From NCBI GenBank assembly GCA_002633005.1, contig NMRA01000053.1:444131-508130 (forward strand): a stretch of 64,000 bases of DNA, given 5' to 3'. This stretch comes from Phoronis australis (lineage: Eukaryota; Animalia; Phoronida). Shown here piece by piece: positions 961 to 46,377 of this stretch. The stretch's first letter is position 1; each line of letters opens with the position of its first letter. The translations under genes and the position numbers were made by a program. The notes beneath the pieces were generated by a model. That model was not told the DNA's origin, made no database searches, and worked only from the letters and a program-made list of their open reading frames with translations.

Positions 961-1133
961 CTATTCCGTCAACGCATGAGAGGTTCTCATATGATGAGTC
1001 AAATTGTCCCTCCGCTTATATGCCTTTGAGCACACGGAACACTTGTGCCGAACGCCGAAATGTTTCTCTTTGATATGGCGTACAACGTCCCTTTTCCAGA
1101 TGTATGGGCTCCAACAAATGCCACACGAAAATC
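961..1133 (-). CDS. Alternative 3'-terminal exon ZF-1, two C2H2 zinc fingers
   Basis: Acceptor ttctttattctag|GA TTT (phase 1); (G)FSCGICWSPYIWKRDVVRHIKEKHFGVRHKCSVCSKAYKRRDNLTHHMRTSHALTE*; two CxxC-x12-HxxxxH fingers then stop; the ORF-track start lies in the polypyrimidine tract. Confidence 0.88.
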
Positions 1134-4100
1134 CTAGAATAAAGAACACCTATGAAAAATGTGCGATGATGATCACTAGCTTTTTCACTTTCCAACTCCA
1201 TTTTAGTTAATGTAATTCTTCACTTTTTTGCACGAAATTAATTAAATATATTTTTCCGAGAGTCGGGGTGCGCCAAGTGAACGCAGACTTCGCAGTGGAC
1301 AGGTGTAGAAAATTGACCAAGCATCGCCACCTGCACGTGTGTTAATTTAACGAAATATATATGATCCTAAGTATATTAGCGACACCTTTAATCCAGGCCA
1401 CCCCTTTCACCAGCATGAGATATACCGCATAAATGGATGAATTAAGTGGTGAATATACAATGTTCAGACTATAAACATCACAGTATGGTATTATGATGTC
1501 TATGGTTCAGACCTTTGTTGACATAGTAAAAAATATGTGTATGTAATTAATGACATGGCTTTGCATTGACATTTTTCAAAGGGGAAAAACTGACTGCGTG
1601 TTTATTAGGTCAGGAACGAAATTCTCACCAGGTAAATGAGGGATAAAAACACTTTTCAAAATAATTTTTGGTAGGCGAAATAAGAAATAAAATCTGGACT
1701 TCCGGAGAGGTAAGTCATTGGATACTGTCACAATCAGTAATGTTATCTGTTGAAAAAATTCACCTAAGTTATCACTATGCATGTGTACCCGACTAACCTA
1801 AGATCCCAGGCTGAGCTATTCAGAATTCATAGAGGTTAATAAAACAATTATCATCTCCAGCAGGACCATAAACCCTTTGATAAGCTGTACTTATTTACAC
1901 AGTCCAATTGGAGAACTCATGACTAGGGGCAGGTTCACAAGAACTACTTTCACTGACCTTGCAATTGTCATGTTCAAAAGTCCCATTGTGAGTTAAGGAC
2001 ACTTATGATTTACAAGCATTTGCAATATTCTAAACTACTATTCCAACTTGCTACCCCCTCCAAGACCAAACTCTAATGTTTAAGACCTTTTCTACTGATG
2101 TTGCACATGGATCTGTGGAAAGTAGTAAACTCAATGTTACAATAAATAATGAAGATTCGGTGCTTTTGAAAGAATTTCATCCATGAGTGATTTTTCACTT
2201 TTGTTGCCCGTTGACAACACTGATTTTTGAAACACTGTTGCTTGATTTAAGCAACTGTATAAATTTTCTTGATAGCATTAGTTTCGTTAGTTGTCAACAA
2301 GCTCTTTAAAAAAGCCTGATTTACCATTAGCGTAGACTAAATGTTTAATAGCAGCAACATTGATCTCATCAAGTTATCATTGCACATTTATTTTTCTCAC
2401 ATGACCTGGAATGTGTTACGACACGACTGGTTAATAACATCGAGTACATAATTTTTGTGATATTACATGGGCGAATCTATCACAAAGTAGTGCAAATAAG
2501 AAATCTATACGCCTTACATTATATTATTTGCAAAGCAGTAATGCCAACAACCAAACAATGCCAGAATTTCGAGGTGACACGGTTATGATTGAAAAATCGG
2601 GTGTCGCAACTGTACACACTCCCATTCGAAAGAACATGCAAACAACTTCTTAAACGGACTCATCTTCGGCCGTGAATTCCATATTCACGTTCATTCAAAT
2701 GGAGGCGAATCCCAACTCAAGAAACTTCACCGTGAGACTGACTAGATGTGCTGTTAATTCAGTGGTCATGCGGGTATTCGGGGATCCCCTGCTGACTGTG
2801 TTATTTATAAACATAGTTATTTATAACATTTTTAAGTTTTAATGTTAAAACTTCAAAGAGTATTGATTAGATTCTAACTTGAAAGGTTGTTTCAAAAGCT
2901 AAACGCAATTTACAATTGCTAAGTTTAAAATGAAATTATTAACAAAAAGTAACTGTCTGTTTATATTTTGAATTGTGTGTTTTTACAAAAGTTACTTCAA
3001 GTGATTGAAAGTTTTAGGCACGTTGAGTTTTCCGGCAGACATGAAATTCCCCAAGACATTTTGCCCATGTCATAAACCAGAGACAAGTGTAGGATTCTCT
3101 ATAAAAGCCCTGAATAATTACAACATGAATTTCTAAGCCTTGAACGTTTTTACAGAAAAATGTACTAGACACTTCAAACCCAAAAGACTTGTCACAATGC
3201 ACGAAAAACTTCGTAAACACAAATTCTAGCGTAGAGCAGTCAGGAATAAAGGCCCTTTCATACTGACTTAGCTAGGGTAGATGTAAACTTCGAAGTTAAT
3301 GAACCGATCATTCTGACTTCAATAGTTAACGGACATTGAAGTAAACAGCAACTGATGTTGATGTCAGCGAAGTAATCACAAATTAGCGCTGATGCATCCT
3401 GTACACGCTAAGGTTTTTTAAAATTGACAATTTGGGGACATTTAGATTGTGCTAACTGACATGAAACGTATTTCTAATTTGATAGGGTTATTTGAGCAAA
3501 ATATAAGCAATTATTCACGACGATGCTGCCCCTTTCTTGTTGACGATAACAGTGGTTCCTGGCAATAACTTCGATGAGATGGAAGTTGACCATTCATACT
3601 GCATCACAGTATCAATGCTCCGCTGTTAAATCCACCTGTTTACCGCAAAGTTAACTGGCGCTGTTAACTTTCGATTCAGAACTAAAATTAACTGTTCTTA
3701 CTGACCGCAACTCCCTAAAACATCGAAGCATCGACATTCAGGCCCTTTCATACGAATGTCAATGCTTCGATGTCGATTCTTAAAAGAGCGAGAGAGATGC
3801 GCAAGAAATGTATATTCATCAACATAGAAATTAGTGACGCTTATGGTTAAAAAATAACCAGAACTACACATCAACTGCGGTAATCAACTTACCATAAATC
3901 CAAGCAGAAATGTCAACTTTAAACTAAGTTATACTGACCACTGTTTAGGTCATATCACTATTACATTATTACATGTGCACCATCAGACATCATGTTTTAT
4001 AAAATGGCAAACCTTGAATGATTTGAAATAATTTTGCAATCCTCTCATAAATGGTGACGTAAACACTTCTTGTTTTCATCATATAGAGTGGAACTCGTAG

Positions 4101-5486
4101 GTATTATCTTTTTCACTTAGCAAATTGCTTTATTCGTTTTTTATCTGACTTTGAAGTTGGCCATATTTGGTCTGCCAATATAGCACTCAACGATACTGTG
4201 ACCATTTGCAGCTCAAATGAATAACTCATTCTAGTACAAACAAGTTACATTGTTGTTGAAGCTGTTACACCTTGTTATATACATGAACAACACTTAATTT
4301 ACATCAGGAACAGAAGTGTAGTCATGTTAAGACTCACAGGACGCCGTCCCCCAACTTTTTACCACTGGGCAGCAATTCCCGTCAGCAAAATTCTATTTTT
4401 CAGCCAAATTGCAGTAATTTTCGCCTTGTTTCATGTCTAGTGTATCTTGCCCCAGTACTAAGTACTTTGGTTATTTGGTTCTACACACAGCATCACCCCT
4501 GGTGTTTTTCACTTGAATTAGACCTCTGATCAGGACATCAAGTCCTTAAAAATGACCAGCTATGGAGAGTTGAACTGCTTTCAAACTACAATTGTTCAAT
4601 GTTTAACCTATTATATGAATTGTGTAAATGTGGATTAAAACTTAGGACCAAGAAGATCAGTTTCTTTTTCCACCAATTCATGTCCACTTTGCCAACGAAT
4701 TAGTAAATTCAAAAACACCTAATTTTTCGTTAGTTCAAATCTAATTTATTGTTCCTTATTGTTTGACTGATTCACAGCAACAAAGTAGCCACAAAGCAGT
4801 CCTTGCTGTTATAACCTATGACCCCTACAGGAAATCATCACCAACAGGATACAATGCCACTGACACAGAAAATATTGACTTCCATTTCTTCATAAAAGAT
4901 AAGCAGAGTAACACTTAATTAATACTTTACTGTTTAGTCTTATAACATAAATAACACCTGACACTATTTTGAAATACTGTGAGTGCACACATTGTTAAAA
5001 GCCTTAAAAATTCAAAGCTGGATTACACTAAAGTTTAACTGTCAATATTCAATTCTTCGCGGACCGCTTTGTTATTTAAAAAATTCCCTTGCTCACGTTA
5101 TTTTGAATTGTTGCCAAATGAACCTGCAACTCAAGTCAGAGGCAATGCAAACATGCAGCACTTTCGAATTCTTGTTGGTAATGAATTTAGAATTCCACCA
5201 AGGTAAGGAATTTGCAGCTTTAAAAAAGGGCAAATTTTTCATTTAATTTTGACCAAATGTTTGAGACTTTACCAAGAGATGTTGAGGCAGTCAAAATTGA
5301 ACAATCTATTTCAATGTGTAAATTATTTTTAATCAGGGCATGGACAGGATTAATGTCTTGCAATCGCTAGTAACCTGGTTGAGGTTAATTTGCATTTTAG
5401 GCAGCGAGTATGACGGGTCTGGAAATGTCCCTTTACGAAAAAGCAATTAAATTCACCAAATCAAAAAAGTTCTGGCAGTGTCTGCG

Positions 5487-5662
5487 TTATTCCATTATAG
5501 AGTTGTGACACTTCAGAAGGTGAACTTTAATAGTGTATCCGTGGGCAAATGTCTTCGGACACATGGGACATTTGTGGCGAATGCCGAAATGGTTACTCCT
5601 GATATGGCGAAGAAGGTCCTTTCTCCAGGCGTAAGAGTTTCCACAAATGCCACATTCAAAGC
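5487..5662 (-). CDS. Alternative 3'-terminal exon ZF-2, two C2H2 zinc fingers
   Basis: Acceptor ttttttgttttag|GC TTT (phase 1); (G)FECGICGNSYAWRKDLLRHIRSNHFGIRHKCPMCPKTFAHGYTIKVHLLKCHNSIME*; hand-translated, not in ORF track. Confidence 0.88.
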
Positions 5663-7633
5663 CTAAAACAAAAAATATTTATGACAATTCTGTGGTTTCC
5701 AAATTTTATCCGAGACCATTGAAATGTTACTAGTAGCAGTTTGCCACAGTGACCCACTCGGCGGAATGACAAAACAGCCCAGAGTCAGAAATAAAAAACA
5801 AACGAGTAAAAAACAAAGACTTTTATTTGTAAAATCATGTTGAGCACCATAACAATAGCTGTAAAAACATCTAACAGCATACACAGTTTGTCACTTGTTA
5901 CCCTTCTTCCTCAGTTATTTACGGGTCCTTCACAGAGTCTCCATAAGCTTTCATTTGCATTAACTGTATTTTTTGTCTCAATGTGAATAAAGTGTATTAC
6001 TACGAATACTCATTTCTCTAGTCCTGGGGCCTATTTCATGAAAAATGACTTAAGGTTTAATTCGAAAATTTCGTCTCTTGCTGCACAAATCGGATGTTCC
6101 TAATAACAGATTCGTTTCATTTTAGCAAAGTACAAGGTCTCTCAGAATATACACATCAACGCGAATTAATCAGATACCCTGTATGGAGTGCAGTTAAACT
6201 GCAATGCGCCTACAATGTCATTGTGAAAACTTTACTCAGTAATATCAAAGTGGGAGCCTTAAGACAAAATATCTTTTCTTGAAACCGACTTTTTCCCGTG
6301 TTGCAACCATACACAAGGAGTTGATACAGTGTATATCCTACCATTTTAAAAACCCAAATAGTGCTGTGTCATAAACACAACAAAAATGAAAGCCATTTGA
6401 GGATTGATACTTGCCGAAATTTACAAACTTAGAACTACAGTTTGACAACAAATGCAAGAACACTAATGAATGGGACAGCACCCAAAATACCGCCGATGAC
6501 AACAGTGATGAAAGCGTAAGCAACTCAATGACGCTGACAAAGAATGCAAAGAGACAAAACTGCCAATGACATCAAGGCAATTGAAAATCTTGAGTAACTC
6601 AAGAACAGTAAATTGTAGCCAATAACAGATTGTGCATTTCCGATAACTCTTGATGCTCAGGTCTATATACATACGGAATTTCAAAAGCATCCCTCACAAG
6701 ACTGCTGAGCTGGAGCTCCATGAATTGCAAATTTGAAAATGGTTGTCACAGCGCCATCTTTGGTCTGCATTTCGCGCAAAAGCTCTTTACAAGATACATG
6801 TTGTGCATAAATCTCATGTCGATCGGACATAAGAAGCAATCTGCAGCATGCGTAAAAACAAACAAAATTCATGACAGAGCAACATACTTAAAGGAAAAAC
6901 TTCATTTCACCAAGTAATTATCGAACAGAGTAATTTAAAATAAAGTTCTCAAAGATCATCACTTTTAAACGTGACAAATACACAATAAAACATAGCTGAT
7001 ATAGGCGTAGCTTCATAAACACGTGCATGGGCCTAATTACGCACATATATGTACCGAAGCACATAAGTGATCCACGTCAATGAAATAGTATGATACTAAC
7101 AAGCAGTAGGTCAGTAAAAGCATGGTTTGTGTAAACTCTAAATCAGTGATTAGGCAGTGGAAAACTAAAACTCTAGTTACAAAGACGAACTAATCGTTTT
7201 TCCAGGACACACCAAACTGAAAGGCTATCTGTGGTTGGTTGCGCATTACCCAAAAGTTGGATAAGTTGGATACGAGACATTATCTAACCTGAGAATTACT
7301 AAAGCTTCAGTCCCATATCACCTATAGCCATGTCACAAATTCAACTCAACATTAGGGAGGCAGAAAATGGTGTTGAATGGTTTATCCAGCTGTTGTTAAG
7401 TTAGGCCAGATACACTTGGCTGCACATAGCCTATCAAATTACATGGCGATGACATTGCAACCAACATAGTAAAAAATGTTTTGACATTAGAATGACCAAG
7501 TGTTAGATGATTTTGATAAACAACAATTATCAAGGCAGCAGAGGACAACAGCAGGATAAGTGCCCAGCTGATACAAAGCTTTATGGGTAAATACCACAAA
7601 ATTAGAATGGTGCTGTGACATTTCGGGATGTGG

Positions 7634-7797
7634 TTATGTATGCATGTTTTGCATATGTATTCTGAGACTGTACTTCTGATTAAATGTCGAAGAACACAAG
7701 TGACAATTGTAGCGAATGCCCAAGTGATTAGCTTTGATATGGCGATGGATTCCAATTCTCCAGTTGTAGTTCTTTCCGCAAATACCACAAGAAAACC
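7634..7797 (-). CDS. Alternative 3'-terminal exon ZF-3, two C2H2 zinc fingers
   Basis: Acceptor ctttttgttctag|GG TTT (phase 1); (G)FSCGICGKNYNWRIGIHRHIKANHLGIRYNCHLCSSTFNQKYSLRIHMQNMHT*. Confidence 0.88.
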
Positions 7798-9075
7798 CTA
7801 GAACAAAAAGTAATCATGACTAGTCTGCTGTGAGGCTGAAAATTACCCTAGTGTGTCTGAGACATGGCTAATGTAGAAATGTCAGCGTGATTAGCTATAA
7901 AACAAGTAGTATTAGACAGGCTATATGCCAAGTTTAAAGAATTGGCAAAATTCGAACTAGTTAAAACAGAGAAATCCCATACCTGGTCAATAAAGTTTTA
8001 TAGGTTCTGCAGATGTGCTTAATGTAATATGCCTGGGGAAATGTTTCTTTCAATTTGACAAAACAGCTTTGATGAACAAGAAAACATCAATTACAGTAAA
8101 AAAAACTTCAATCTTATACACCGTACTCCTCTGAAACAGTCCCTTGTTTTAACAAAATTCTCAACAAAATAAATTTCAACTTTATCCCATTTTTTAATGT
8201 TCGCTTGTTATCAAGCAACATTTGGTAAAACCGACCTCTTGTCATAATGTACCTGCATTAAGCTTATGGAAAATCAAAAAAACAATTTCAGCAATTGTAT
8301 AAGAAATATTCTTTAGTTAAAAGTGTTTAGGGCAAGTATAACATGTCACTATAGACCAAGCAGAACCAAATCTTAGTATAGCTAAGCTTTCAAGTCTGCC
8401 GGACTCCTGCTCGAAGGAGTTGGCGAAGCTGCTTGGAATTTAGGTTTTCGCTTAGGCGAACCCTGAAATATGATTTCAGACTCTCTCTCCATCACAAGAG
8501 AACAAGGGATCCATACATATCCCAGCACTGTGATACTAAAATTAAAGCCAACGGTGGTTACTGCAGAAACCATAGAAAATTTAGTTCATAGACATTATGT
8601 GGAATAATTCCAAATTCAAGGTAAAACAAGATTTTCACAAGTAAAAGCTGAAGACCACATTCTAAGCCTGAAATGCTCAATGATACCTTGCTAAGGCGTG
8701 TGAAATGAAGGTCAAGATGGACTCGAAAGCTTGGCTCCTCACTAAAACTATGGTTGCTATCGAAATAGGAGACTGACCTCACGTCATATCAGAATATCAG
8801 TGTCAGATAATGAACCTTCCTACCACCTTTATGACAAGTATTATCACAAGTACATGCCACTGTACAGTGAGCCCCGCTCTGACTGAGGTATTTACATGCA
8901 ATACTGGTGTAAGGAAGGCACTGACATCATAGCTTATTACAAGAGTACTTTACATCGAAATTTGTTAATCCTTTATTTTAATGCCAATAACATTTTGCTG
9001 TTATACAGTGAGTTGCAGCGGTGATACCTGAATGTGTCGTGACCTAATGAAACTGTTACTTGTGTGGCGGCTTAA

Positions 9076-9511
9076 GCGCTGTTTACACTTCAAAAGTTGA
9101 CACAGATCAGCTGACATGGAACGACATGTTCCAGTGTGTAAATGGGACCGACACGGAGCAAACTGAAACCGCGGTGACAAATTTTGCCACCCGTTTGTGA
9201 GGTAGACTCTACCGTAGAGCAATTTGCGCACGAACATCTTGCTCCGTGTCAATTATAAGTCTAAACGCGAAACTGGGGCAAGGTGGAAAGGATCATCTCT
9301 ACTGCGCTTGCCTAATGACCTACGTATGGGTTCTTTGTCTCTGCAACTCTCGTCATTTGTAAACCTGCGCATGTACGATCCAGTCTCTCCAGCTGCAACT
9401 TCCGTCTTGCCACAGTTAGTGAGTTGTGTGTGTAAACAGGCGCTTGACACGGGTCAATTTGCTCCGTGTCAGTTGCGCCAGGCGGGCCAAATGTTGATGT
9501 CTAAACGGGAC
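9076..9511. mobile_element. Degenerate PIF/Harbinger-like non-autonomous element
   Basis: Imperfect termini gcgctgtttacac ... gtctaaacgggac, left end preceded by taa; internal motif ttgctccgtgtc recurs in both orientations (~9150, ~9240, ~9460). Confidence 0.4.
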
Positions 9512-9643
9512 TATAGAAGGGTGTCAGCCAATTAACCTTTCGAGATACGTTCAATTATTCACTGCATTATTACCTCCACACAAAAGAGTTGAATTCGGGA
9601 TATGGCTAAGGAAGCAACAAGTTACAGCTTCTCATTACATCTA

Positions 9644-9804
9644 TCAATGCAACTTCTGTAGATGGGTTCTGAGACTAGACGTCTGGTTAAATGTCTTAGA
9701 ACACAAGTGACATTTGTAGCGAATGCCCAAGTGATTAGCTGTGATGTGGCGGTGTATACAGAATTTCCTGCTGTAGTTCTTTCCACAAATACCACAAGAA
9801 AACC
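9644..9804 (-). CDS. Alternative 3'-terminal exon ZF-4, two C2H2 zinc fingers
   Basis: Acceptor ttctttgttctag|GG TTT (phase 1); (G)FSCGICGKNYSRKFCIHRHITANHLGIRYKCHLCSKTFNQTSSLRTHLQKLH*. Confidence 0.88.
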
Positions 9805-10863
9805 CTAGAACAAAGAACAATTATGACAAATCTATTGCGAAATTATAGCCTAGAGCCTGCGAGATATGGCTGAGGTTAAAGTGTAGGGTGTCCAAAAGTG
9901 AAAAATTTAAAGTCACAAGACTAGAGAACATGTAGCTATCTCCATCTGGTGTTTCAATAGGGAACCACTCTATTCATAAACTGCAAGCAACCGTATTGAT
10001 TTCAGCTAATTCATTTGCTCAATTTTTTAACTTTGGCAGAAGGAACATGTCATCCTAGGCTTCATTGACAAAAATATGTGCAAATAGCTCTCATGCACTA
10101 GCAGTCAGTTTCCAATGACTGCTCAGTCACATGACCTTCGCAGTTAACAATTAGAGACCAACAGGTCACACCACATATTACCCTAAACTAAAGCCTCCTA
10201 AACCAACTTGACTCTCAATTCAGGTGAGCAAACACACTGCACATTTAACACTATGTACGTTTAAATGTAGTTTAATTTCTAATTTGAAGCTGTTTTTTTT
10301 CAAATTAACACATTTTTCGAAAATTAATCAAGAGTATCATTATGCGTGTTACTTTACAAGGGTTTAAAGGGAAACAATTCCGTTTGTTGATGTTCCATGA
10401 CAATAACTGGGACATTCTACTGTCTGGTATGACAATAAGTGGGCTCTACCAAGAGACGAATAATGCCATACCAGTAGGTGGATACCCACGGAGATCTGGA
10501 CACCAACGTCACCAAGGAAAAGACAACTGATTTACACTTTTAGCTGCTATTTTGATTATGAATGAACCTTGTAGGTTTACAAAAATAAATTCTACCTAAT
10601 GCAGTAGCGACATACTTCACCATCATCAGTTCTGAAAGCTGACTTCAAGTTGTATACTATAACTCAACATTGTCAGCATACAATAAATCAAGCGTAACAT
10701 GTTTGAAAAATACAAATGTTTATTTTTCAAGATAAATTTTTAAACAAAGTTAAACTGTTGAAACAAATGTTATTCCATCAGCTACAAACTATGCAAAAAT
10801 ATATGTAGTATCAAAATTAAAACTAGGGCGAAATCTTCAGCCGCCAAAAACTAGTGCATAAGT

Positions 10864-11012
10864 TTATCTAAGTTCTACAGAATGTGGTTTATATAAAGTC
10901 TGGGAAAATGTGATAGAACATAATGTGAAACATTTCATTTTGTATACCCAAGTGAATGGCTGAGAATAGCAATTCTCCAGTGGCAGTCCTTTCCACAAAT
11001 ACCATAAAACCC
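10864..11012 (-). pseudogene. Decayed zinc-finger exon copy (ZF-psi)
   Basis: Nucleotide-level paralogue of ZF-3/4/5/6 (ggtatttgtggaaag, tggagaatt, cacttgggt, acattttcccagac); acceptor changed to gttcgag; frameshifts and deletion of the RHIKAN segment. Confidence 0.7.
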
Positions 11013-12483
11013 CTCGAACAAACAACAATAGACCTGCGAAACACCAGGCCAAGTGGAAATTTGTATTTTGTTCCACTTCTCTATACATCATGGTGCTTCT
11101 GTTACTGCGAAGCAGGCGAGCATTCCATAAAGACAAGATCACGCAAGACTGCGTAAAATATCTCAATGTGTCACAAGCAAAACACATGATCATACCATCT
11201 TCCTTTGTGAAGATCCTGTGTCCATGGAACTCGGCTCAGGAATTCTCCTGAGGTTTGTAGGACCTCATGACAGTTTTCTAGTGCATGGCTATAGACCTCA
11301 TGCAAGGTAAAAAATTCCAATTTTGGGACAAAAATAATTGCTAAATTGCTACATTTCTGTTTTTAGAAACTTACCACCCACGATATTGCAAATGCTCAAA
11401 ATTTCACCAAATGTTGCCGTACAAATGCTGAACACAAACTAAATTGTCCTTAAGTTATTTTGTTGAGAAATTTGACAAAATGAAATTTAATCTGCCCGCC
11501 ATATTGTGTACCAAACTAAAGATATTTTCCACACCCAACACTTGACCCATTTCCCATGCTCCATTGGGACACTCCTGAAGAAGACCACTGCGGACAAGTT
11601 GAGCCCTGATATGTCCAATGAGGTCGAGAATGGCAGGGCATGGTGCAATAACGGTATATCCATCTACAGTGTTTGCCACAGATTGTGGTTATGTGCCATT
11701 TGAGGCACCTCAAAGACGACACATTTGGAGTTCACAACTGCATCACTTAGGATGTAATTTTGACGAGACGTTGTAAAAAATAAAACCAAGTATATTAAAA
11801 TTACTGAGTTTCATTTCTTGGTAATCTTCCTTATTTTCAATTGATCAAGTCAGATTTGCCTCAGTTTTCCAACATACCATGTGCATCATTCTAGTTTAAT
11901 AGATAATTCACAGACTATTATGAATGAACTCCAAGAAAGTATAATGGACACAAACAAATTTGAAAGGTGGGATCATGGTACCCCACTTGGAAGACAGTAT
12001 GGGTTGAACAATGGCCCGGGTGGCTAACACCCCTGTCCTTTCAGTACATAATCACTGTTCACTCAAACACTGCTGATTGACAACAATACTCTGGTCTTCA
12101 TGCATAGGGGGTTGTACATGACAGGAAAGTCAAACTACCTTTACTAGGCTAAGTAACTAGCTTAACTATAAAGGTTAGTGAACATTCATGCCACATTTTA
12201 CGGCCATTTTCACTGCTACAATAAAATCTGACCAATTTAGGACAAAGTATGGTGGCCAAGTAAAATGAACATGTTTTTTTCAAGTAAGATAATATCAAAT
12301 AAAGATTCTTTATTATTTTTTAAATTCTTCATCAGAAAATGCTTTGACTTAATGGTGAGCACTCACAAAACTGTAAGACGTCTTTAAAAACTGTACAAAG
12401 TTCATTACTGGCAACCACTATTGACCAAATTAGGAAAGATTTTACTGCGGACAGTCACTAAAGCTTCAGCCTCACAACACTAA

Positions 12484-12644
12484 TTAATGCATGGTCTGCA
12501 GATGGGTTCTGAGGCTAGACGTCTGGTTGAATGTGTTGGGACACAAGTGGCACTCATAGCGAATACCCAAGTGATTAGCTTTGATGTGGCGTTGGACACT
12601 GATTCTCCAGTTGTAGGTCTTTCCACACATACCACAGAAAAACC
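12484..12644 (-). CDS. Alternative 3'-terminal exon ZF-5, two C2H2 zinc fingers
   Basis: Acceptor ttttttgttctag|GG TTT (phase 1); (G)FFCGMCGKTYNWRISVQRHIKANHLGIRYECHLCPNTFNQTSSLRTHLQTMH*. Confidence 0.88.
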
Positions 12645-14814
12645 CTAGAACAAAAAACAGTTATGACAAGTCTTTGACGACAAGCCTCGTAAATTTAAAG
12701 ATCTCTTGAGCACTGTTCAGGTAACAGTCAGGTAACATGACTGTTACCTTAGGACAAAGACGAATGTCAAATGTTTTTGTCCAACAGTCACAAAAAATCA
12801 AGAAGTGAAATGAGGTAACTTGATACTTGCTATTTTTTATGGTTATACAGTGATGGGAATGGAGCTCACAGGTATTATTTTGGCCAATTTTAGCCCCGTG
12901 TAGTGCGCAGTACAACTTACTGTCAGACATGGGCAGGATTGAGCAACCTGTCTAAATATGGTTAAGCCAGGGAACAAGCAAAAGTACACACATCTAAGAA
13001 GCAGGTTATCCCCTGAACTGCAAGTTCAATGACATTTCTTTCAGCCAATACACGATATAATCTGTTCACTTCAGTTCAAAGCTGAATAGTTTTCTAAATT
13101 TCCAAAGTGGCCAAGTTCTAACATTGGCATACTTGACACATAAATGAACAACAGGTCTTTTTACCATAGAGGAACAAGTTTCAACAACAAACTAAGAAAA
13201 CATGGAAAGGTTCACTGGTAACAAGTTACCATCAACTACCATAAACTTCTAGTTTAGCACCCTATGTGGTTAAATTAGCAACTTAAAAAACCAGGAGGTA
13301 GGTCCTACAATTCTAGCGAGACGGGCATTCAGAAAGACATTAGAACATTTATTAGTTTTAAGAAAGTCTCGATCGCATAAACTGGGTACGGGCGCTGAGC
13401 AGACCACGGACAAGAACGGTAGTGGGCATGTGACCTTCGTAGTCAACAAGATTTAGCAACAACTTCATCACAGGAAGCTAAAACCCTGATGACACCACCT
13501 ATAACCTCATGTAACCACAAGGGTCGCCTAGCACGGACCTGGACACAGATCTTACTCAGGAAATGATGTACACTTACAGTTCTACATTTTGATTTACAAT
13601 CAAACAAAATCAACAGCATCTTCATCACCAATTCTAACACCTAACAAGGAACTAGAGTTGCATTATAATCGGATTACATTATAAATCACATTAACACTTT
13701 AGAAAAAGATAAACGTTACATTCCTAAAATAAAAATGTTAACAAGATCACTCTATGCAACAGGTATCGTTACAGAAGCTATAAACCTAGTTAAAGCCACA
13801 TGCAACATCGTCTTTAAAAACCCTTGATTTGGTCTGTGTCCCTTTAACAAGGCAATTTCCTCATAATGCACTGTAAAACCATGGACAGCTTCAATCAACA
13901 GTATGATTCAGTTGTTAACTTAATTTATTCCAGTTCGAGGCCACAGTTCACCTAAATAGCGCTGCTAAAGCTGCGGACTATAAACCAACCTTCCATCAAA
14001 AATTACGAACTTTTGATTTAGACCACTTAACAGAAATAAAACCCAAGCATTGCGCAGACCTTGTTTCTTGCGAGAAAAGCTAGAAATTGCAAGATCTAAC
14101 AAAAATCATGGACTAAAAGGTGCGTATGCTCCAGAGCTTATTAGCCTGTCCTAGTAAGATGGCGGCCACTGAAGTGATTGGTCGACGAGGTCAGAATGTT
14201 GAATTATGGGATTGAATCCACCGTTTCCATTGCACAAATGAAGATTTTCTAGCATGGGTGCCAGCTAATGTCTTGCCGTCTACATAACTCAACCCAGGTC
14301 TCGATTTATTAGACATAATTTTTTGGCTTGGGAAGGATCAATAGATCATTAAAACCTTACAGCAGGCTAAAAAAGTGGACTTATCATGGCCGGTTATTTT
14401 ATACGACGATCATGATCTCAAGGAATAATCAATGGATTCTGACAAACGCAGACAGACGATGGTCCACAAGTACAAAGCAAATACCATGGAATTCCTTTGC
14501 AAGCCTACTACACCAACAGATACTTGGCTATGTGTTTCCGACCACAACGAGCAGCATTATCAAACCGTTGTCGAGCAGGAAATGAACTGCAAACTTAACA
14601 GTACATCCACGATACCAAGCCTCATGCCAGCCCATTGACATGCCAAGCTTCATTCAAGATGCCTGATAGACTCAGACACCATAATAAAAAAATAATTGCA
14701 GGTGGTCTGATACACGTTGTATCAGACGTGCGCAGGCCTCGCATGTGGGCCCATTGCACTGATCACCTGGAAATATTTTTATGCTTATTAATATGTGGTT
14801 AAAACCGAGCTGAG

Positions 14815-14925
14815 GAGCTGGAAACCTGGCTCAAGGGTTTAGCAGTGTGACATGGTGGGACTTGAACCCACGACCTCGAGTAAAGAAAGCGGGCACTTAT
14901 CAATCAGGCCACACTGCCTCCTCTC
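14815..14925 (-). mobile_element. tRNA-derived SINE 5' fragment
   Basis: Minus strand has A-box-like tggcctgattgataag, B-box ggttcaagtccc, then CORE-like cccttgagcc; no complete cloverleaf. Confidence 0.6.
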
Positions 14926-15433
14926 AGACACCATAGGTGCCAGTGTTATTTTGTGTTGTACTCTTTTGCCTGGCGAAAAGAGTGGCTGCTCTGGTACGCT
15001 ATTTCACAGCACAAATAATGGTGGGAACACTATCTGCGTGTGATTTGCTTGTATTTGAACGTTTTGATAGTGTCTACTGGTGGTCTAGTGTTAGGAGTGA
15101 ATAAGTGAGGCAACGCATCTGTAAGTCACATGCGCTGTCATCCGTGCACAATCTATATGTTTAGTTATTAATTTACAGTACATAATAATAGAAAAAATAA
15201 AAATATTTATGCTACATTATGAAGGTGAACTTCATTTACTTTGTGTTGATTTATCTAAGCTAAGCTTCAGCTTTTATCAGTGATAAGCAATTTCTCCATG
15301 TTGTTGAACCACACAAATTCAACTGACTTTCCACTTTCAATACATACTTTTACTCAAGCTAAAATCTAATGTTTTGAAGATATTTGGCTCAATACACTAG
15401 TTGATAGACCTACATAACCCTAAGGAACAGGCA

Positions 15434-15557
15434 GAGACAGGCCTGGGCCGAGACAGGCCTGGGCCGAGACATTCCTGGGCCGAGACAGGCCTGGGCCGAG
15501 ACATTCCTGGGCCGAGACAGGCCTGGGCCGAGAAAGGCCAGGGCCGAGACAGGCCTG
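15434..15557. repeat. Minisatellite, 16-17 bp unit (gagacaggcctgggcc)
   Basis: About 7-8 tandem copies read directly. Confidence 0.9.
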
Positions 15558-15694
15558 GTCAGAGACCAGTTATATAGTAGTAAACTAAAGTAAGTGCTCT
15601 TAATCAAATGTTTTCCTTGAATGGAAGGTGGTTTATACCTATTTCAGCACACAAGTACTATGAAATATGTTAAGAGACAATTTCAGCTTCATAG

Positions 15695-15867
15695 CTAGTC
15701 CATTAGGTTATGGAAGTTCTGTAGATGTGTTTTAATATAAGACGTCTGGGAAAATGTCTTCGGACACATAGGGCATTTGTGACGAATGCCCAAGTGATTT
15801 GCTTTGATATGGCGCCGCACATCGGGTTTCCAGTTATAGGTCTTGCCGCAAATGTCACAAGCAAACC
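15695..15867 (-). CDS. Alternative 3'-terminal exon ZF-6, two C2H2 zinc fingers
   Basis: Acceptor ttttttgttctag|GG TTT (phase 1); (G)FACDICGKTYNWKPDVRRHIKANHLGIRHKCPMCPKTFSQTSYIKTHLQNFHNLMD*. Confidence 0.88.
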
Positions 15868-15941
15868 CTAGAACAAAAAATAATTATGAAATACGAGTGA
15901 GGACTAGTTTACTTAGTCAACGCATGTATCTTACAATGAAA

Positions 15942-16263
15942 GTTTTCGTCCATTCAACCCTGTTGTTTAGTCAAACTGGATAGACTGAATAGGTGGTGCC
16001 ATGAGTGATGTCATGAGAGTGAAGGTGAGAGCCCTCTGTAGTCATTATCCTTCTTTCAATGCAGCGTAGGTTGTACTCATCTTCTCCCTTCTGACCTCAC
16101 AACAGAGAAGACAAGTGCCCTCTGTAGTCATTTCCCCCTTGCTATGTAGCGCAGGATGGACTCATTGGCACTTCCAGAGGGTACTCATCTCCGTCCGATG
16201 TAACACCACCTACAGACTCCATCCAGTTTGTTAAAGACAACACTGAACAGAGCGGTCGAAAAC
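15942..16263. mobile_element. Degenerate MITE-like foldback element
   Basis: Imperfect inverted ends (ttttcgtcc...caaactggatagactgaataggtggtg / caccacctacagactccatccagtttg...ggtcgaaaa) with an internal direct repeat (gccctctgtagtcatt x2). Confidence 0.45.
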
Positions 16264-17870
16264 ATTGACTGCAAGGTATGGGGGTCTCAACTATAACGAA
16301 ATGAACCCTCACTCATATTTCACTGCCTACCATTATCGGTAAATTTCATCAACTTCAGAAAAAATAGTTGCTAAAGTTTATCTTTTTCCGTTTTCAAAAG
16401 CTTCCAATCGTGTTGTAAATGCCCAGTTTCTTAAAACAGAACTTAGAATTATATTTTAACAATAGGTTTAATACCACTTATTTGTAAAAAATGCATTGTC
16501 GAGATTTTACTTTTTAGTTAAAGTACAACTATTGCAAGCCCTTTTGTGTAACATATACCACAGTGTGTACATAAAAGGACAGGAGACAACTGGGATGTCT
16601 GAAACGTAAACAAACTAAAGAACTGAAGCTGCTAATAACAGAGATTAGACAGCACTCAGCTAGGGAAACAGCCTACTCTCTACGTGACTGACGGCCATAT
16701 TGCTTTCAGCTCAAAAATGGCACCACCTATATGACCTTAAATTTTCAAACAATATAATTAAACCTTTTCTTTTGCCTCAGCCTCTGTGGTATCCACGTTA
16801 AAGAAGTGTTGAAACCAAGTCAATTATCACGCACACGACCTTTTGAGTGTCCACGCCCTGGAGCATGAACTTATTTTATAATGCCCACCACGACAAGATG
16901 CACATGAACGAAACCCTTTACAAATGACAACAGAGAATGTGCTTCACTTAGAAGATTGAACACACTGTTTATTATCATGATGATCACATAGCAAATATTT
17001 AATGTTGAGAACCTGATTATTTAAATTTTTACAAGCAATTGAATTGAATGGAATCATTTAATTTACCAATACTTGAGCAGAGTGCATAACCTTGGAGGCT
17101 TGCTATTTTCTCATTTCAGATTAGTTTACACAACTTGCCCACTGTTGGACATTCAGTCATTCAGTCCAACAGATGCCGTATTTAATCAGACGCCAAATAT
17201 GAAGATAAAGTGTCAGAAAAGACTTCAATCACCACACACAATGAGTCATTCAATGAAAAATCAACATGATGGCGGTTCTGCATAAAATTTTTCAGTTTTC
17301 AAACCAGTTTTTAAAATTTTTACTAAGACTAAGCAACACATAGTTGCACTGTCATTATGGGCGCACACAAATCAAAAACAGAATTTTAATAATTATTTTC
17401 CCCCAAATGTTAGCCAAATGCACATGCATTTATAAGTCATCCGAATAATTGAAATGATCACGACTGACCTGTACAAACTGAAAATAAATTTACAAGATAT
17501 TTAGCAGTCCCTTACAATGATTTCATTATTAATAATGAATTCCGCCAATATTATAATATCATGTGTCTACACGGAAATTTTACAATTCAATAGACTAAAT
17601 TACACTTAAAATATCCTTTACTAAGGCTCCTTTGTGCAATTAGTTCAAATATGCCGTATTTACTGTCTCTAATGAACTCGCACAGTAATAATGATCTCAC
17701 TAATGTTAACAAGTGTACAAACACAAAATGACACATTCTGCAAAGCAAATGCAATTCTTCAGCAAATGTTTGCTCGAGGTTTTGTACAGTTTACCGTGAA
17801 GTAATTTGCTCCCGGTATGTTTCTGTGCACTATAGGACAGTCGTCGCGAGAAGAAAAAATTGTCCTCAAA

Positions 17871-18067
17871 TCATGGCGTGACCACTCGAACGTTGTTCGT
17901 TATGCCATGGAACTTGAGTTCATGCACTCTCAGCTGTTGCTTCCACTTAAAAGTCTTGGAACAATACGGGCACGACTCCATTATTCCAAAATGCACAGCG
18001 CGTAGATGACGGTTTAGGGCGGATTTGCTCAAATAAGATTTGTCTCCACACAGGCCACAAAAGAACC
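17871..18067 (-). CDS. Alternative 3'-terminal exon ZF-7, two C2H2 zinc fingers
   Basis: Acceptor ttttttgttttag|GG TTC (phase 1); (G)FFCGLCGDKSYLSKSALNRHLRAVHFGIMESCPYCSKTFKWKQQLRVHELKFHGITNNVRVVTP*. Confidence 0.88.
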
Positions 18068-18252
18068 CTAAAACAAAAAAATCACTTTAAATACTGGAGT
18101 TCCAAAAAATTCATGTGTGTCCACTACAGACCCCTGAGATACAACAGCAATTGGCCAATTGGAAATGACGAATTTTATTTCAATAAACAAACATAACCCT
18201 CTGCACTGAAACTGAAGAAGCTTCCCAAGTGTGACTGCGGATTAACATGTGT

Positions 18253-18412
18253 GGGTTGTCTGGTGAATGACTGTGTTGTCTGGTGAATGACAGGGTTGTC
18301 TGGTGAAAGACAGGGTTGTCTGGTGAAAGACAGGGTTGTCTGGTGAATGACTGGGTTGTCTGGTGAATGACACGGTTGTCTGGTGAATGACTGGGTTGTC
18401 TGGTGAATGACT
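18253..18412. repeat. Minisatellite, 20 bp unit (gggttgtctggtgaatgact)
   Basis: Eight tandem copies read directly. Confidence 0.92.
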
Positions 18413-18905
18413 GGAAGTTTGTGGCTATGACTGCCTTGTACCTATGAACTATAAAAATGTAAATAATTAAATGAAACAAGATTTATATTATTTCACTCAA
18501 GTACAATGCCAGCTTAACTAATTTGAACTGAAGATCCACTTTATCTTTCAAAACTGATTTACAGCTCCACTATCAACTAAAGGTAAGTTTCAAGCTGACA
18601 CTGAATATGTCAAATACTTGAATGATAACCAGCATCAACAGGTAAGTGAATAACACATCACCCCCTCCCCTCGGGGGCTATAATTGAATACACCTGGAAC
18701 AGGCTATATTAACATCAACTGTAACCACCCTTTAAGTTGTAGACTGGACATACATCAAGGATTTCTAAACTTTTGTTTCAGCTCCGCTAATAATTCATCT
18801 GGAGTCATCCCAACAACAGGTATGCTTTCTCACAAATGTTCATCCCACTGTTGTGATATATGTGCTTAAACTGTTTCTCAGAAATTTCTAGTTCATTTCG
18901 ATGAC

Positions 18906-19093
18906 TCAAACAAATTTGTTCTTAGAAATCTGATGCTTAGTTTCCAGGTGGCGATGAACCTGATGCCTCCACTTGAATTTCTCGTCACAAAACGGGCACG
19001 ACTCCAAGATACATAAATGAATTGCCTTGATGTGGCGTCGTGCAGCCACGCTCGACTTGAACTGACTCTGGCAAATTCCGCACACGAACTGGC
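18906..19093 (-). CDS. Alternative 3'-terminal exon ZF-8, two C2H2 zinc fingers
   Basis: Acceptor tttccattttag|GC CAG (phase 1); (G)QFVCGICQSQFKSSVAARRHIKAIHLCILESCPFCDEKFKWRHQVHRHLETKHQISKNKFV*. Confidence 0.88.
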
Positions 19094-20347
19094 CTAAAAT
19101 GGAAACAACGCTAAGTCGGTTGTGGGTCGTCGAAACTGTTTCACATCTATTTTTACATATATGCAGAAAATAGCCGAATCAATAGAAATTAAAGTGAAAC
19201 TTTATAATGCGGCTCAAGTATCAATAGAATTCAGCGACCGAGTTAACTAAATAACCAGTATTTTATTTATGATTGTCCTCATTTCGTTTTCGTGAAAGAA
19301 ACTGCGTTTACTTCCATGCTATACGTGTGCTCTGGTCACCATGGTTTCTATTTCTAGGAATCTTTGCATAAAAAATTGAGAAACAGTGTACCATGAAACT
19401 AGGGAAAATGGACACTAAAAATACACCTTTAAAATTGTTGCAACACCGGTATTGATAAATAAGATTTTCAATTGAGCTGAAAGCACTTTATACCGAGCAT
19501 GAACTCAAAGCAATCAAGTCCAGGTAAGAAGAACAGTACGACACAAAAAACCATCGGCACTCACGGTAAACAGAAATGTTCAAAGGGAAAGACTAGATAC
19601 CATCTGAGAGCAGCCAATGGAAATTTACCACTAATCAAAATGGAAGACCAGATAAGATCTATGAAGATCACTTTCCCAACACTGACAGTGACACAGTTGC
19701 ACCAAGAGGCTCCAGAAAAAAACACTGCAGTCTCAGGAATGCTTCACAAACATTTTATTGACAGCTACACGGGGGATGGACAATTTCTTAAGAAGCACTT
19801 TCTTGAGCCAGAAACAGCCATGAGCTTCACTCTAATCATAGTATAACCACAGAAAACAAGAAATGATAACTTGTGTTATTGGCAAGGCTCAAGTTTGTAA
19901 GGATAATAAAAAACATTCAACACAATCCTTGTGTGAAACAGGGTGTCAAAAGTAATAACCATATCATCTATTAAGCGCTCAATACAACTAACAAGAGTTG
20001 CCCCCCCCCCCCTCCCCTACTGCAGTTGTGGAAGACTAACACGGTATACAGAAACAACAAAGAGAAACTGATGGACATAACTGCTCATTGATCTGATGGG
20101 AACTCATCATCAGCTTCTGACAGCACCTGTCCAACAGGCAGTCACCACATGGAAGTTTCTAATACGCTGTCTGATTTGATGGAAAATAATCATCACCCAA
20201 ACACAATCTACAGGGAATAACAAGAACATCCTCACAGGCCTTTCTAACTATTGGTCATCAGTGAAAGTTTCTGAGATGCTGTCCGATACGATCTCACCCT
20301 AAAATAGTAACAGTGCATATACCGAACAAAGAGCGTGTCCGACCTGT

Positions 20348-20538
20348 CTAACTGTTAGTCATCTGATGGAAGTTTCTGAGGTGCTTTCTGATCTGAGTCT
20401 GCCACTTGAATGTGGCCGAGCAGTGCGGACAGCTGTATCTGATTCCAAAGTGTTCGGCGCTGATGTGACGCCTCATGTTATACAAATTGTACTTGCGAGT
20501 GCCCTCGATACACTTCCCGCATAGACCACATATGAAGC
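20348..20538 (-). CDS. Alternative 3'-terminal exon ZF-9, two C2H2 zinc fingers
   Basis: Acceptor ctgttgtttgtag|GC TTC (phase 1); (G)FICGLCGKCIEGTRKYNLYNMRRHISAEHFGIRYSCPHCSATFKWQTQIRKHLRNFHQMTNS*; first finger has an insertion between CxxC and the helix. Confidence 0.88.
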
Positions 20539-25048: not shown

Positions 25049-25304
25049 CTGTCTCTGTCTGAATCGTGTGTGTCTGTAGCAGGTCGTTTACTGAGTCTTT
25101 ACTTGGTGTGTGTCGAGTTGCAGCTTGGGGGCTCGGTCTAAAACCAACAGAACACATCTTAAGCAAAACAACAAGCGCTACCAACAATGTAAACAGCACT
25201 AAAGTAATGATAATTTCTGACAAATTGCTCGATTGCGAAAGAGCATCAAGAATTCTGTCGACATGTACAGTGTACTGCAACACACTGGCAAAATTGTTTC
25301 CAAT
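25049..25304 (-). CDS. Candidate internal exon encoding a hydrophobic, TM-like segment
   Basis: ttccattctag| 85 open codons incl. IIITLVLFTLLVALVVLL ... ACA G|gtgagc; no partner exons identified. Confidence 0.3.
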
Positions 25305-30800: not shown

Positions 30801-32814
30801 CTCGTATAAATAGTTATTGTCTTTACACACTGAATAAAGCTAGACTACTACAATATAGGAACCATTTTTGTTTGAATAAAAACCTCCTAAGAAATAATTC
30901 AAGCTCGAACAATGACGAGACTTCTAGCGACACAACCAGCGCAACGTTTTGCAGCCAATTGTATTTTGTATAAGTTTTTCCAGCGTGAAAATGTTACATA
31001 TCATGGTGCCTAGTAATCGACTGACTAAATATGAAATTCATTTTGCAAACTGGAAAGAAGTGCTCTTGCAACTCGGGGAAAGTTATCTAATGAAAACCAT
31101 GCAACGTCTTTATTTCCAACTAAATGACTAGCTCCAACGGCGGTCTGATACGTAGATTGGCTGCTTCACGTGTAATATGTTTGGGCAATTCTTGGCGACC
31201 TATTACAGAAGGTTATTTGCAAACCGAGATTTCTCAACTCATTCTTAGTATTGAAATTTTTTCATTAAGTATGTCAAACCATCAGTCCATTGGTTTTCCT
31301 GAACTAGTCACTATTATCCTTTAGAATAGTCTCTCCAACAATCCTTAAGAGTCTATTTCCCAGAAGCAGCCCAGTTTCAAGCAATAACAGAATAATCTTA
31401 CAAGGTACGGTTCCTTGTGTCACTTCTACATCCAGAAATGTTAAAATGACTTAGAGCAAATCTCGTTTGTTTCCCCCATGCGAAAACGATGCAACTGCGT
31501 TTACACCCGACCTCGGTACCACCAAAACGGCATTAGAGTACTTTGGACACGAGATTTGCAGTTTTCAGTAACAGTGCAGATTTTTGCGTATTGAAAATTC
31601 AAACTTTTCAGCATGTTAGCCTGTTGAAACTGTGTTTAGCTGGTACTTTTCCTAGTTACGTTGATCATAAATTTTTAGAATTCTCAAGTGTTCAATTGGT
31701 GTACCGCACTTGTAGTTGTTGTTAAGATCCAACGGTAAGGTTCCTTACAAAACTTGAATAATTATGCTAATACATGCAGCAATGGTAATATATACCATGA
31801 ATCATGTTGAGTCAGGTACACGAGTTCCTTGCTTCAAAAGTTATGCTGTTTCTTAAAACAAAAAATGTATCTGTAAAAAGTGCTTGTGACACTTCACAGG
31901 ACGTTTTACACCAGATGACATGTTCTTAACTATTCAGAAGTTTGGAATAATTGTTCATTGCAAGTGTCTATTAAATGATAAACACGAACCACCGTAATAC
32001 CTGTCAAAAAAACCTCGACGGTTGCCGATGACTCAACGTGCCACGAAGTCAGTGTGGTCACCATGTGCGGAAGAAAACAACGCGCTATAAACTGCACTAT
32101 AAATTCGATGGTGTCTTCCATAAGGCACTGCCATTATTCAGAATAACGTTGCAAAAACAGATGTTCCCCTCTTACAGAAGCTATTTTCTTCCCAGCTCGG
32201 AATATGCAGCCTCTCACGCTTTGTTATTTTGACAACAGTACATATTTAGCCAGAGATAGCCGGAATTGAATGAAATATTAAACAATTCACCAACAACAGA
32301 AGTCGTTGCTAATATAGTATAGGCTGGTGATGATTAATGTCGAAAGAAGCCTTGCGATTCGTCAATTATCTTGCTACATTTAGAATGAATCAAGCAAGTT
32401 TGACATTGGAGCTCACTTTTAAATAAAAATAATTTGAATACATTTTTTAATTTTCAACTTTAAAATTTTCTTCCATTTCTATTATTAGCTTATAAGCAGT
32501 TTCGAATTTCCGTATTTTTTCCTGCCTTTCCTTTTGCGTATCGTACAAAGATCTGCTAACCCACATTTACATTAGCGTATGGTGTACAACTGCACATTCA
32601 CCGACCAGGACGCTTAAATTAGGGAACTCCAAAATCAGGGCTGAGCATTAAGCAGAGCATGGGCGCTTCGTTAACAACATAAATCAAGAACGAAACAGTT
32701 TGACTGTTTTCAGCAACTGCTACTTCAGCATGACTTCAAACATCCGAACAGGATGTCTCATGAAAGAAACCACCAATTTTACGTCTTCGAATTTTTTAAC
32801 AGCATAATCTCTCA

Positions 32815-33098
32815 GGGCTGTTCCAGTAAAATCAGTGTGGGAGGGGGGGATGGCAGTAGAAATAAAAATTCATGGGTGGTGGTCTTCAGAAAAAACTCAA
32901 ATTATGGGTGGTCGTTCCTGTAAGAAGTGATGCATTAAAAATGGGTGGTATTTTTTGACCTGTTAATGTTGACAGGTTGGTTACTTCAGCCGTCAAAACT
33001 AAAAAAATGCAATTGGCATATATCCCAACTAATATGGGCGGTGGGTACGAAATAAAAGTGCCTTCCCCCCTCCCATACAGATTTTGCTGGAACAGCCC
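32815..33098. mobile_element. MITE with 3-bp TSD (Zator/PIF-like)
   Basis: ~30-bp TIR gggctgttccagtaaaatcagtgtgggaggggg / ccccctcccatacagattttgctggaacagccc; TCA on both flanks; truncated relative near 24045. Confidence 0.8.
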
Positions 33099-33560
33099 TC
33101 ATCAGATTTCCAATTAGACCTTCCAATATTTTCTAATGAGTGCATTTCTGCAATTAAAAAAAAACAGTTCAAGCTATGGAAAATCCCAAATGTGGGTTTT
33201 TAATAATTTTAAACAAAATTTTGATACAAAAAGTTTGATGAAAAGCACTTTTTCACTATCAATGTACTTTTCAAAAAAAAAACACTTTCACCAAAAACGC
33301 ATGGTCACGTGCCTACGAGAATTGCATAATGTTGTGAACGATAAGAACAGCTTTGCCTCAACTCCTAGTTTCAGTTGGTTAAATGAAGACAACATATTAA
33401 TAAGGGTACAATACATGACTACAAAAGATACTTGTCTGGATCTAAATGTGAAACACAGGGGAGCGAAAGTATTATTTCGCATGCACATCAATAGGCCTAA
33501 AATGCATGCATGCAAATATGGTTAACTGGTAGGAAGCCTCACTAATGTATACAACTTAAG

Positions 33561-33784
33561 TTACAGCTTAACATATAAGGCTGATCGATTCAATATATTC
33601 CTTTTTAACTTCAAAGGAGTTGTTTCGTCATCAAAATCGATTTCTTCTAACATCCTGTTTGCTCCAGCTCTGAAGAAATGCACAGTAGTGGACCGTGGAC
33701 GTTGGAACTCTCTTGACAGAAACTGCTCCAAATTCTCCCTGTTTAATGATTGAGGCACAGTCACAGTCCTCACTCTATAGTCAC
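33561..33784 (-). CDS. Terminal exon, C-terminal part of a predicted beta-grasp (ubiquitin/PB1-like) domain
   Basis: Acceptor tttttcttattcag|GT GAC (phase 1); (G)DYRVRTVTVPQSLNRENLEQFLSREF...VHFFRAGANRMLEEI...TPLKLKRNILNRSALYVKL*; fold inferred from strand/helix pattern only. Confidence 0.65.
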
Positions 33785-34000
33785 CTGAATAAGAAAAACA
33801 TTGGGAGTGTATATGTGAATTGGTGTGAAAGCTGAGTGAAAAGCAATTGCACAGCAAAACAAGACATTAACTTAACAAGCCTGCACATTTTCATGTTAAA
33901 TAAATGAAACCGGTCCTCACACAACATTAAATTCTTTATGTCTTTTGGAAGAATTTTGAGTAAATAAATTGACTAGTGTACAATGTGTAATTAAACCTAC

Positions 34001-34125
34001 CTCTCAGACGCACTGGCATGATTGTGGTCCATTCTTCTTTCAACAGACCAATCCTCAAGGTTACTCTCGAAGCTGGTTTCGACAGGATAACTCTTGCTCC
34101 GCTTTCACCATGACACCGTGTACAA
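34001..34125 (-). CDS. Internal exon (phase 2 to phase 1) linking the linker exon to the 33561-33784 exon
   Basis: gaaattccag|T TGT ACA ... CTG AGA G|gtaggt; CTRCHGESGARVILSKPASRVTLRIGLLKEEWTTIMPVRLR; phases match both neighbours. Confidence 0.6.
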
Positions 34126-35257: not shown

Positions 35258-36005
35258 AGAACACCCCTTTGTGCCACACCTCCCGTTGACCTGACTTGTG
35301 TTGAACTTGGACCTCGACTGCCAGAGGGTGTCATAGATGAGATATTGGGCGTTACCCCTGTACTAGTCTGCGCAGCATAAGATGTGCTTGGTGACTGCTC
35401 TACAACTGCCGTGGCTGCATCTCCAAGCCACATACTTTGTTCACCACCCAGACGGTCCCCATCTTCAGACTCCACAGACATAAGCAAACCAGGCTCCTCC
35501 TTAATGTTCTGTTCATTTGTTACACAACTGGATGGTGATGCCGCCATCAACGTGGAAGATTCTGTTGATGAACCGGCCGCTGTGTAATCAGTCTCTGATG
35601 TCCCCGACTGTGTGATGGATGGGACACTCACAGTGGACACTTCCGTTCCTGCTGTCAGAATCACTGGTTGAGAGTTTGAAACACTAGGTCCACTACCACT
35701 ACTACTACCACTTCTAGCATTTACAATTGTACTACTTTTACTGCTACGGGAAATGGCGTTCTTGAGAAGATTTGTCACACTTTTTGGTCGTGCTGGCCTT
35801 GGTCGATTGTTGAGCGACACTGGCCGTGAGTAGGGAGCCCGGAGGCCCCTCCGACTAGGTGGCACTGATCGCATAAATGTACTGTTCGTGCCCAAATGGC
35901 TAGCTGCCTGGTGGCCATGGAAACTGTCTGGCAAACTGCGCGGCCAACTGACTGGTTCTGCTGGAGTTGTGTACTGCCAGGCGTCTGAGCCGACACCTTC
36001 GCTGT
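35258..36005 (-). CDS. Large Ser/Thr-rich low-complexity exon (transcription-factor-linker-like, IKEEP SUMO consensus)
   Basis: Acceptor ttttgtccatttgtag|AC AGC (phase 1), open 748 nt, donor GTT CT|gtaagt (phase 2); contains the 226-aa ORF of the track. Confidence 0.75.
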
Positions 36006-46372: not shown

Positions 46373-46377
46373 ACCAG

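Follow-up and report, generated by a model that had tools for sequence, protein, structure and literature searches.

The finger-exon array

We have analyzed a stretch of 64,000 nucleotides from the phoronid Phoronis australis (contig NMRA01000053.1, positions 444,131 to 508,130; "the window" hereafter) that carries, on its minus strand, nine intact exons with two C2H2 zinc fingers each and, ahead of them in the direction of transcription, the three constant exons of a gene whose RNA is joined to one of the nine. A first-pass annotation had described the nine units as mutually exclusive last exons of a transcription factor gene of the lola/mod(mdg4) kind; the frameshifted tenth copy and the constant exons at 25049-36515 reported here were absent from it.

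On re-reading, all nine units were found where they had been placed: ZF-1 (961..1133), ZF-2 (5487..5662), ZF-3 (7634..7797), ZF-4 (9644..9804), ZF-5 (12484..12644), ZF-6 (15695..15867), ZF-7 (17871..18067), ZF-8 (18906..19093) and ZF-9 (20348..20538). Each has a T-rich tract and an AG acceptor in phase 1, opens with G and F-x-C (GQFVC in ZF-8), and encodes two fingers of the HxxxxH type followed by its own stop. Finer points of the earlier description needed amendment. The stop was called immediate, but lies 0 to 11 residues behind the last His; the linker, given as H(F/L)G(I/V)R-like, reads HFGIMES in ZF-7 and HLCILES in ZF-8; and the claim that no unit has its own ATG stands for eight of them, which lack an in-frame upstream Met, but not for ZF-9, where one occurs in the 44 open codons ahead of the acceptor. 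Pfam zf-C2H2 was recognized in ZF-1 (E 5e-8) and ZF-4 (E 6e-9). Over all six frames, the strict finger pattern C-x2-4-C-x12-H-x3-5-H gave 16 matches in the window, none of them outside the nine units, and an average of 0.25 (maximum 2) in 40 local shuffles; it leaves uncounted the first fingers of ZF-7 and ZF-9, which have longer loops (17 residues in ZF-9).

When a DNA profile of the nine exons was run against the window, nhmmer recovered a tenth copy of the ZF-3/4/5 type on the same strand (about 10852..11028, E 5e-13) and nothing further below E 0.1. Aligned with the DNA of ZF-4 and ZF-5, this copy shows several frameshifting indels; its acceptor has also decayed, and it provides a local example of what exon decay looks like. 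Protein identity among the finger exons ranges from 32 to 73%, with the top values between the neighbors ZF-3 to ZF-6. Because these neighbors are the most alike and one copy is dead, the array appears to have grown by tandem exon duplication. The spacers between finger exons measure 0.8-4.4 kb. A 16-nt minisatellite (15414-15589) lies directly behind ZF-6, and a 20-nt minisatellite (18233-18452) lies between ZF-8 and ZF-7.

Constant exons, RNA joints and reading frame

RNA evidence was drawn from three 2026 runs labelled with this species, of which some 18-19% each was read, and from the contigs of one older run (the second study). Reads and contigs were placed on positions 17801-37800 of the window, a stretch outside which ZF-1 to ZF-6 lie. 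The reads are stranded and, over the exons of the gene, of minus-strand origin. Constant exon 1 (36374..36544) contains the ATG (36515-36513) and encodes the head domain; its 5' edge at 36544 is predicted from sequence only. Constant exon 2 (35258..36005) is 748 nt long, has both ends set by RNA joints, encodes a Ser/Thr-rich low-complexity linker and is covered at a depth of about 14-33 at the listed sites. The last constant exon (25049..25137) is 89 nt long and ends in a phase-1 donor, AG/GTGAGC, compatible with all nine finger exons. The linker exon contains an IKEEP motif, which we take to be a SUMO-type consensus, and matches no Pfam family.

Three GT..AG joints connect these parts. Joint 36374/36005 was found in 15, 9 and 16 reads of the three runs and in one contig of the second study, joint 35258/25137 in 9, 6 and 17 reads, and joint 25049/19093 in 2, 4 and 5 reads. 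The last of these passes over ZF-9 and attaches ZF-8 to the constant part. The constant N-terminus that had been predicted is therefore present and spliced to an exon of the array, and the proposed split-read check at the acceptors gave a direct answer for ZF-8, the use of the other eight exons being likely. The 11 reads over the ZF-8 joint amount to 34% of the 32 over the preceding constant joint (rough interval 19-53%). As this is about a third, most transcripts would end elsewhere. Fifteen joints were listed, most of those other than these three coming from repeats, with 26 further joints beyond them; among those listed there was none for ZF-7 or ZF-9. The bin containing ZF-7 had a right-strand depth of 3.9-4.8, and positions 17801-18012 are covered by a contig from the second study. 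Hundreds of foreign reads, on both strands, fell on small elements of the inverted-repeat or high-copy kind at 32814-33099, 43133-43537 and 27605-27805, so that the depth there is not that of the finger gene. A possible non-coding first exon lies at 38295-38430 on the minus strand, preceded by a TGACGTCA box and with GTAAGT as its donor.

From the ATG at 36515, the constant frame runs for 326 codons and one base. Joined to the donor at 25049, every one of the nine finger exons gives a single open frame with a single stop and a product of 379-391 residues. Immediately ahead of the ATG stand two in-frame stops, and no AG separates them from it, so a longer head cannot be spliced on; a longer, BTB-containing N-terminus supplied by upstream exons is ruled out on the same grounds. 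Across the nine acceptors, positions -12 to -1 are mostly invariant or nearly so, and the intron beyond about -25 is at background. The assignment of ZF-2, ZF-3, ZF-5 and ZF-6 as alternative last exons draws on these comparisons of frame and acceptor and on those of codons that follow; ZF-1, 24 kb from the donor, and ZF-4 are likewise probable last exons, as is ZF-7, with its intact frame, and ZF-9.

Codon comparisons were made with the proportions of silent (pS) and amino acid-changing (pN) differences. For ZF-3 to ZF-6 pooled, pS was 0.41, and pN was 0.15 for non-contact codons and 0.28 for contact codons, the latter changing about twice as fast. Over all pairs of finger exons, pS ranged from 0.24 to about 1.0, and non-contact pN was below pS in 35 of 36 and equal to it in one. 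With helix positions numbered according to the canonical C2H2 code, the set of residues at -1, 2, 3 and 6 is distinct in each of the nine exons, the Arg at +6 of finger 1 being invariant. By these codon comparisons, the finger scaffold is under purifying selection and the predicted reading positions are faster-changing.

Docking/selector RNA pairing was sought between the 500 nt after the donor and the 400 nt before each acceptor, and no case beat its best shuffle. In eight of nine it was no stronger than six shuffles each, and the remaining case fell 0.2 kcal short of or inside the shuffled range. For the first 500 nt after the donor, such pairing is ruled out as no better than shuffles.

Between the linker and the last constant exon, the gene may have a finger-less 3' end (31100..34125, minus strand) branching at the 35258 donor. 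This candidate comprises an exon at 34001-34125 and a last exon from 33784 to a stop at 33564, which form an open frame once joined to 35258. Minus-strand depth was 1.4-4.3 in bins 31141-32474 and 33142-33808, and reads reach an AATAAA at 31114. No joint for this end was found among those listed, and it matches no Pfam family; to the eye, its last exon resembles what we take to be a ubiquitin-like fold, with no database support. Direct splicing of 35258 to 33784 would instead stop at once, leaving head plus linker only.

The head domain and its molluscan relatives

The first coding exon encodes a head of 46-47 residues, bounded by the in-frame stops on one side and the low-complexity exon on the other. 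It matched no Pfam family at E 0.001. The structural model has two helices (residues 2-16 and 19-39; predicted local distance difference test score 92), so that the head is predicted to be a helical hairpin. The Atlas gave no usable match, a sequence search of the PDB with the head alignment returned only an ion channel (E 0.08), and Foldseek found nothing under E 4. A wide structural search recovered generic hairpins only (best Z 5.3, root-mean-square deviation 2.8, 43 aligned), and a two-copy complex prediction in which the alignment was not used scored 0.01, which speaks neither for nor against pairing.

A search of 1.84 billion representatives yielded 26 proteins at E up to 0.001, of which 21 have the same N-terminal core; the other five (P0002, P0013, P0015, P0018 and P0020) are repeat-rich chance matches and were left out later. 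A 12-sequence head profile then identified 86 longer proteins among 7995 candidates scored. All 70 of these that carry a name are molluscan, from mussels, scallops, clams, Solemya, abalones and octopods. The core, F-x14-F-x2-W-x-D-x-K-x-A-x2-K-x2-G, has eight columns invariant in the 12 sequences, and the head of the window's gene is identical to 44 other members at 15-23 of 44 residues. In a tree of 45 heads built from 44 columns, too few to place the organism, it falls in with six unnamed sequences of ENA/Logan origin (local support 0.97), apart from the named bivalve, abalone and octopod heads.

The window's gene also shares the architecture of this family, namely a core at the very N-terminus with a phase-1 intron at its end, followed by a low-complexity linker and a C-terminal module of DNA-binding type. 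The relatives start at the same place, and short database open reading frames diverge directly after the same Gly/Asp/Glu position of the head. The C-terminal ends of the relatives include C2H2 arrays, Psq-type helix-turn-helix (HTH) domains, DUF3504, an HTH_32-like domain and modules labelled BEN, the label being a UniRef name and BEN being undetected by the Pfam scan. The family is expanded in Solemya velum, with at least 11 head-bearing proteins whose ends are C2H2, DUF3504, HTH and others.

Several relatives exist as isoforms with one front and different ends in database gene models. Mytilus californianus LOC127730005 has 11 proteins that are identical to residue 419 and then continue into two modules, one with five tails (break near 557-561) and the other with six (break near 526); matching tails occur in M. 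edulis, M. galloprovincialis and M. trossulus. The X1 and X2 models of LOC127729511 diverge after residue 505, Potamilus P0071 and P0072 share a front and have Psq and C2H2 tails, respectively, and the unnamed pair P0010/P0030 parts at residue 334. Isoforms in the Mytilus groups P0074-P0095, P0116-P0119 and P0124-P0137 are alike except for the last 24-55 residues of the BEN-labelled module; the Mytilus tails form two tiers and come from at least three loci. The swapped tail is probably a recognition helix, and tail swapping in Mytilus would be a second, perhaps larger, system of diversification.

Probably one gene with alternative ends: interpretation, comparison and surroundings

We put the probability at roughly 0.85 that the locus is one gene whose constant front is spliced to one of the nine finger exons, giving about nine proteins. 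We favor this reading because of the RNA joints, the common frame, the kept acceptors, the distinct helix residues and the isoforms of the relatives. One promoter near the divergent FAM234 gene would produce a long pre-mRNA. Once its three constant exons had been spliced together, the 25049 donor would be connected to one of the nine acceptors, with the transcript ending behind the finger exon so chosen. The choice would be made in cis, presumably through acceptors and poly(A) sites competing with one another, and would be exclusive, since each finger exon carries a stop. Head and linker would be common to all products, which would be set apart by their two fingers alone, with a predicted reading of about six bases each, and the nine proteins are predicted to bind different DNA sequences. 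By analogy, the head may be a partner-binding module in the role of BTB, in which case isoforms could pair and combine specificities.

Several observations weigh against this interpretation. Only one of nine finger joints, that of ZF-8, was seen among the joints listed, and both of its reads in run X1 have one common start. The ZF-7 bin also contains the likely 3' untranslated region of ZF-8 and the minisatellite, and the depth over ZF-9 is marginal, falling within intron background in runs X1 and X2. There is no AATAAA or ATTAAA within 1.5 kb of ZF-3. Homologue searches found no relatives of the linker or of ZF-9, both weak negatives, and the Mytilus and Potamilus isoforms are known from database gene models alone. 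Change at the contact residues stays below the silent rate (pN < pS), which falls short of demonstrating positive selection there.

The scarcity of joints would be explained if only one to three finger exons worked (ZF-8, perhaps ZF-7 and ZF-9) and the rest were rarely or never spliced leftovers of duplication, a view with which the one broken copy also agrees. We consider this improbable: eight further frames are intact at the silent divergences given above, their acceptors are kept, non-contact change is held below silent change in all pairs but the one where they are equal, and about two-thirds of the transcripts over the last constant joint are not explained by ZF-8. At least as improbable, in our view, is trans-splicing, with the finger exons supplied by independent transcripts that start at promoters of their own, a mechanism found in mod(mdg4) and in part in lola. 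Short reads over a joint cannot separate cis from trans, and according to PMC11426971 and PMC13490949 the closest known systems use the latter. Against it, the donor is followed on its own strand by all ten copies, so that cis suffices, and runs X1 and X2 show low coverage of the minus strand in each intron bin from 19135 to 24470, as for one long pre-mRNA.

The least credible alternative makes every finger exon an independent small gene, or the end of one, with its own private ATG exon upstream, the outcome that the first-pass annotation had said would overturn its proposal. The in-frame Met upstream of ZF-9 and the space that the spacers leave for small exons speak for it. However, ZF-8 is spliced to a distant constant exon instead, neither a further finger nor a repeated upstream exon came out of the profile scan, and an acceptor scan found no convincing coding exon between units.

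The reading of one gene with many ends invites comparison with the insect systems to which the locus had been likened. According to PMC11426971, lola has 20 isoforms, 17 with different C-terminal C2H2 fingers, and uses trans-splicing, and mod(mdg4) has at least 30, mostly with FLYWCH ends; mod(mdg4) trans-splicing is reported in both PMC11426971 and PMC13490949, and the title of the former calls the TTK-type BTB arthropod-specific. The window's gene shares with lola its constant N-terminal exons, a low-complexity linker, an array of alternative C2H2 last exons and possibly a finger-less end too. It differs in that its head is a predicted helical hairpin of 46 residues rather than a BTB domain of roughly 120, its named relatives are molluscan, its variable exons all go back to a single two-finger exon as close duplicates, and nothing at the locus indicates a need for trans-splicing. 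Like mod(mdg4), it has one front and many ends of DNA-binding type from alternative 3' exons, but it lacks BTB, its ends are C2H2 rather than FLYWCH, and all of its exons lie on one strand in order. Of the features of the Tramtrack group, constant 5' with alternative 3' exons and different domains of DNA-binding type are present, and BTB is absent. The likeness to lola and mod(mdg4) thus holds for the layout and not for the head: the locus works like these genes and, having no BTB domain, is not a member of their group.

Closer in the head are Mytilus LOC127730005, LOC143063003 and LOC134707891, which have the same N-terminal head, a linker and alternative C-terminal ends common to several Mytilus species; in these genes, only the last 24-55 residues of the BEN-labelled module are swapped, in two tiers, whereas the window's gene swaps a whole finger pair. 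Alternative finger ends are switched by splicing in fruitless, broad and tramtrack, and finger genes headed by ZAD, SCAN or KRAB have spread mainly through whole-gene duplication and have long finger arrays. All of these resemble the window's gene in joining a lineage-restricted N-terminal module to a finger end, and differ from it in the head.

The design itself is known from flies; what is new here is the read-supported joint between constant and variable parts and the link to a named molluscan family. We found no such arrays and no such head outside insects in print, judging from titles and the starts of abstracts, with limited coverage of subscription journals and no supplements. There is, in our estimation, an even chance that the arthropod Tramtrack-BTB genes have an undescribed counterpart in molluscs and their relatives, evolved independently of lola and mod(mdg4), with a dimerizing helical head of 45 residues, repeated arrays of last exons, and C2H2, BEN-type, Psq or transposase-derived ends. 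If so, whole finger pairs would be swapped here and single recognition helices in mussels, and one locus would supply a combinatorial code of DNA-binding specificities. Among insects, a small set of BTB genes that determine neuronal identity and sex-specific wiring is distinguished by DNA-binding ends switched by splicing. If this design also sat on an unrelated head, in a family found across bivalves, abalones and octopods, a whole regulatory strategy would have evolved convergently. In such genomes, loci that now bear names such as 'uncharacterized' or 'dentin sialophosphoprotein-like' would then conceal many transcription factor specificities. The nine finger pairs, being closely related, also form a natural series for tests of the C2H2 recognition code.

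Beyond the finger gene, the window contains a FAM234A/B-like beta-propeller gene on the plus strand (46230-63138; Pfam PF23727 in one exon, E 1.3e-6), which is divergent from the finger gene and offers a marker for synteny. Within one of its introns is a recent short long terminal repeat (LTR) element without pol (53302-54998), with two 265-nt direct repeats that are 99% identical and a gag-like frame of 328 codons. A reverse transcriptase fragment of a long interspersed nuclear element (61728-62096, minus strand), presumably of the RTE type by its looks, appears to be a terminal piece.

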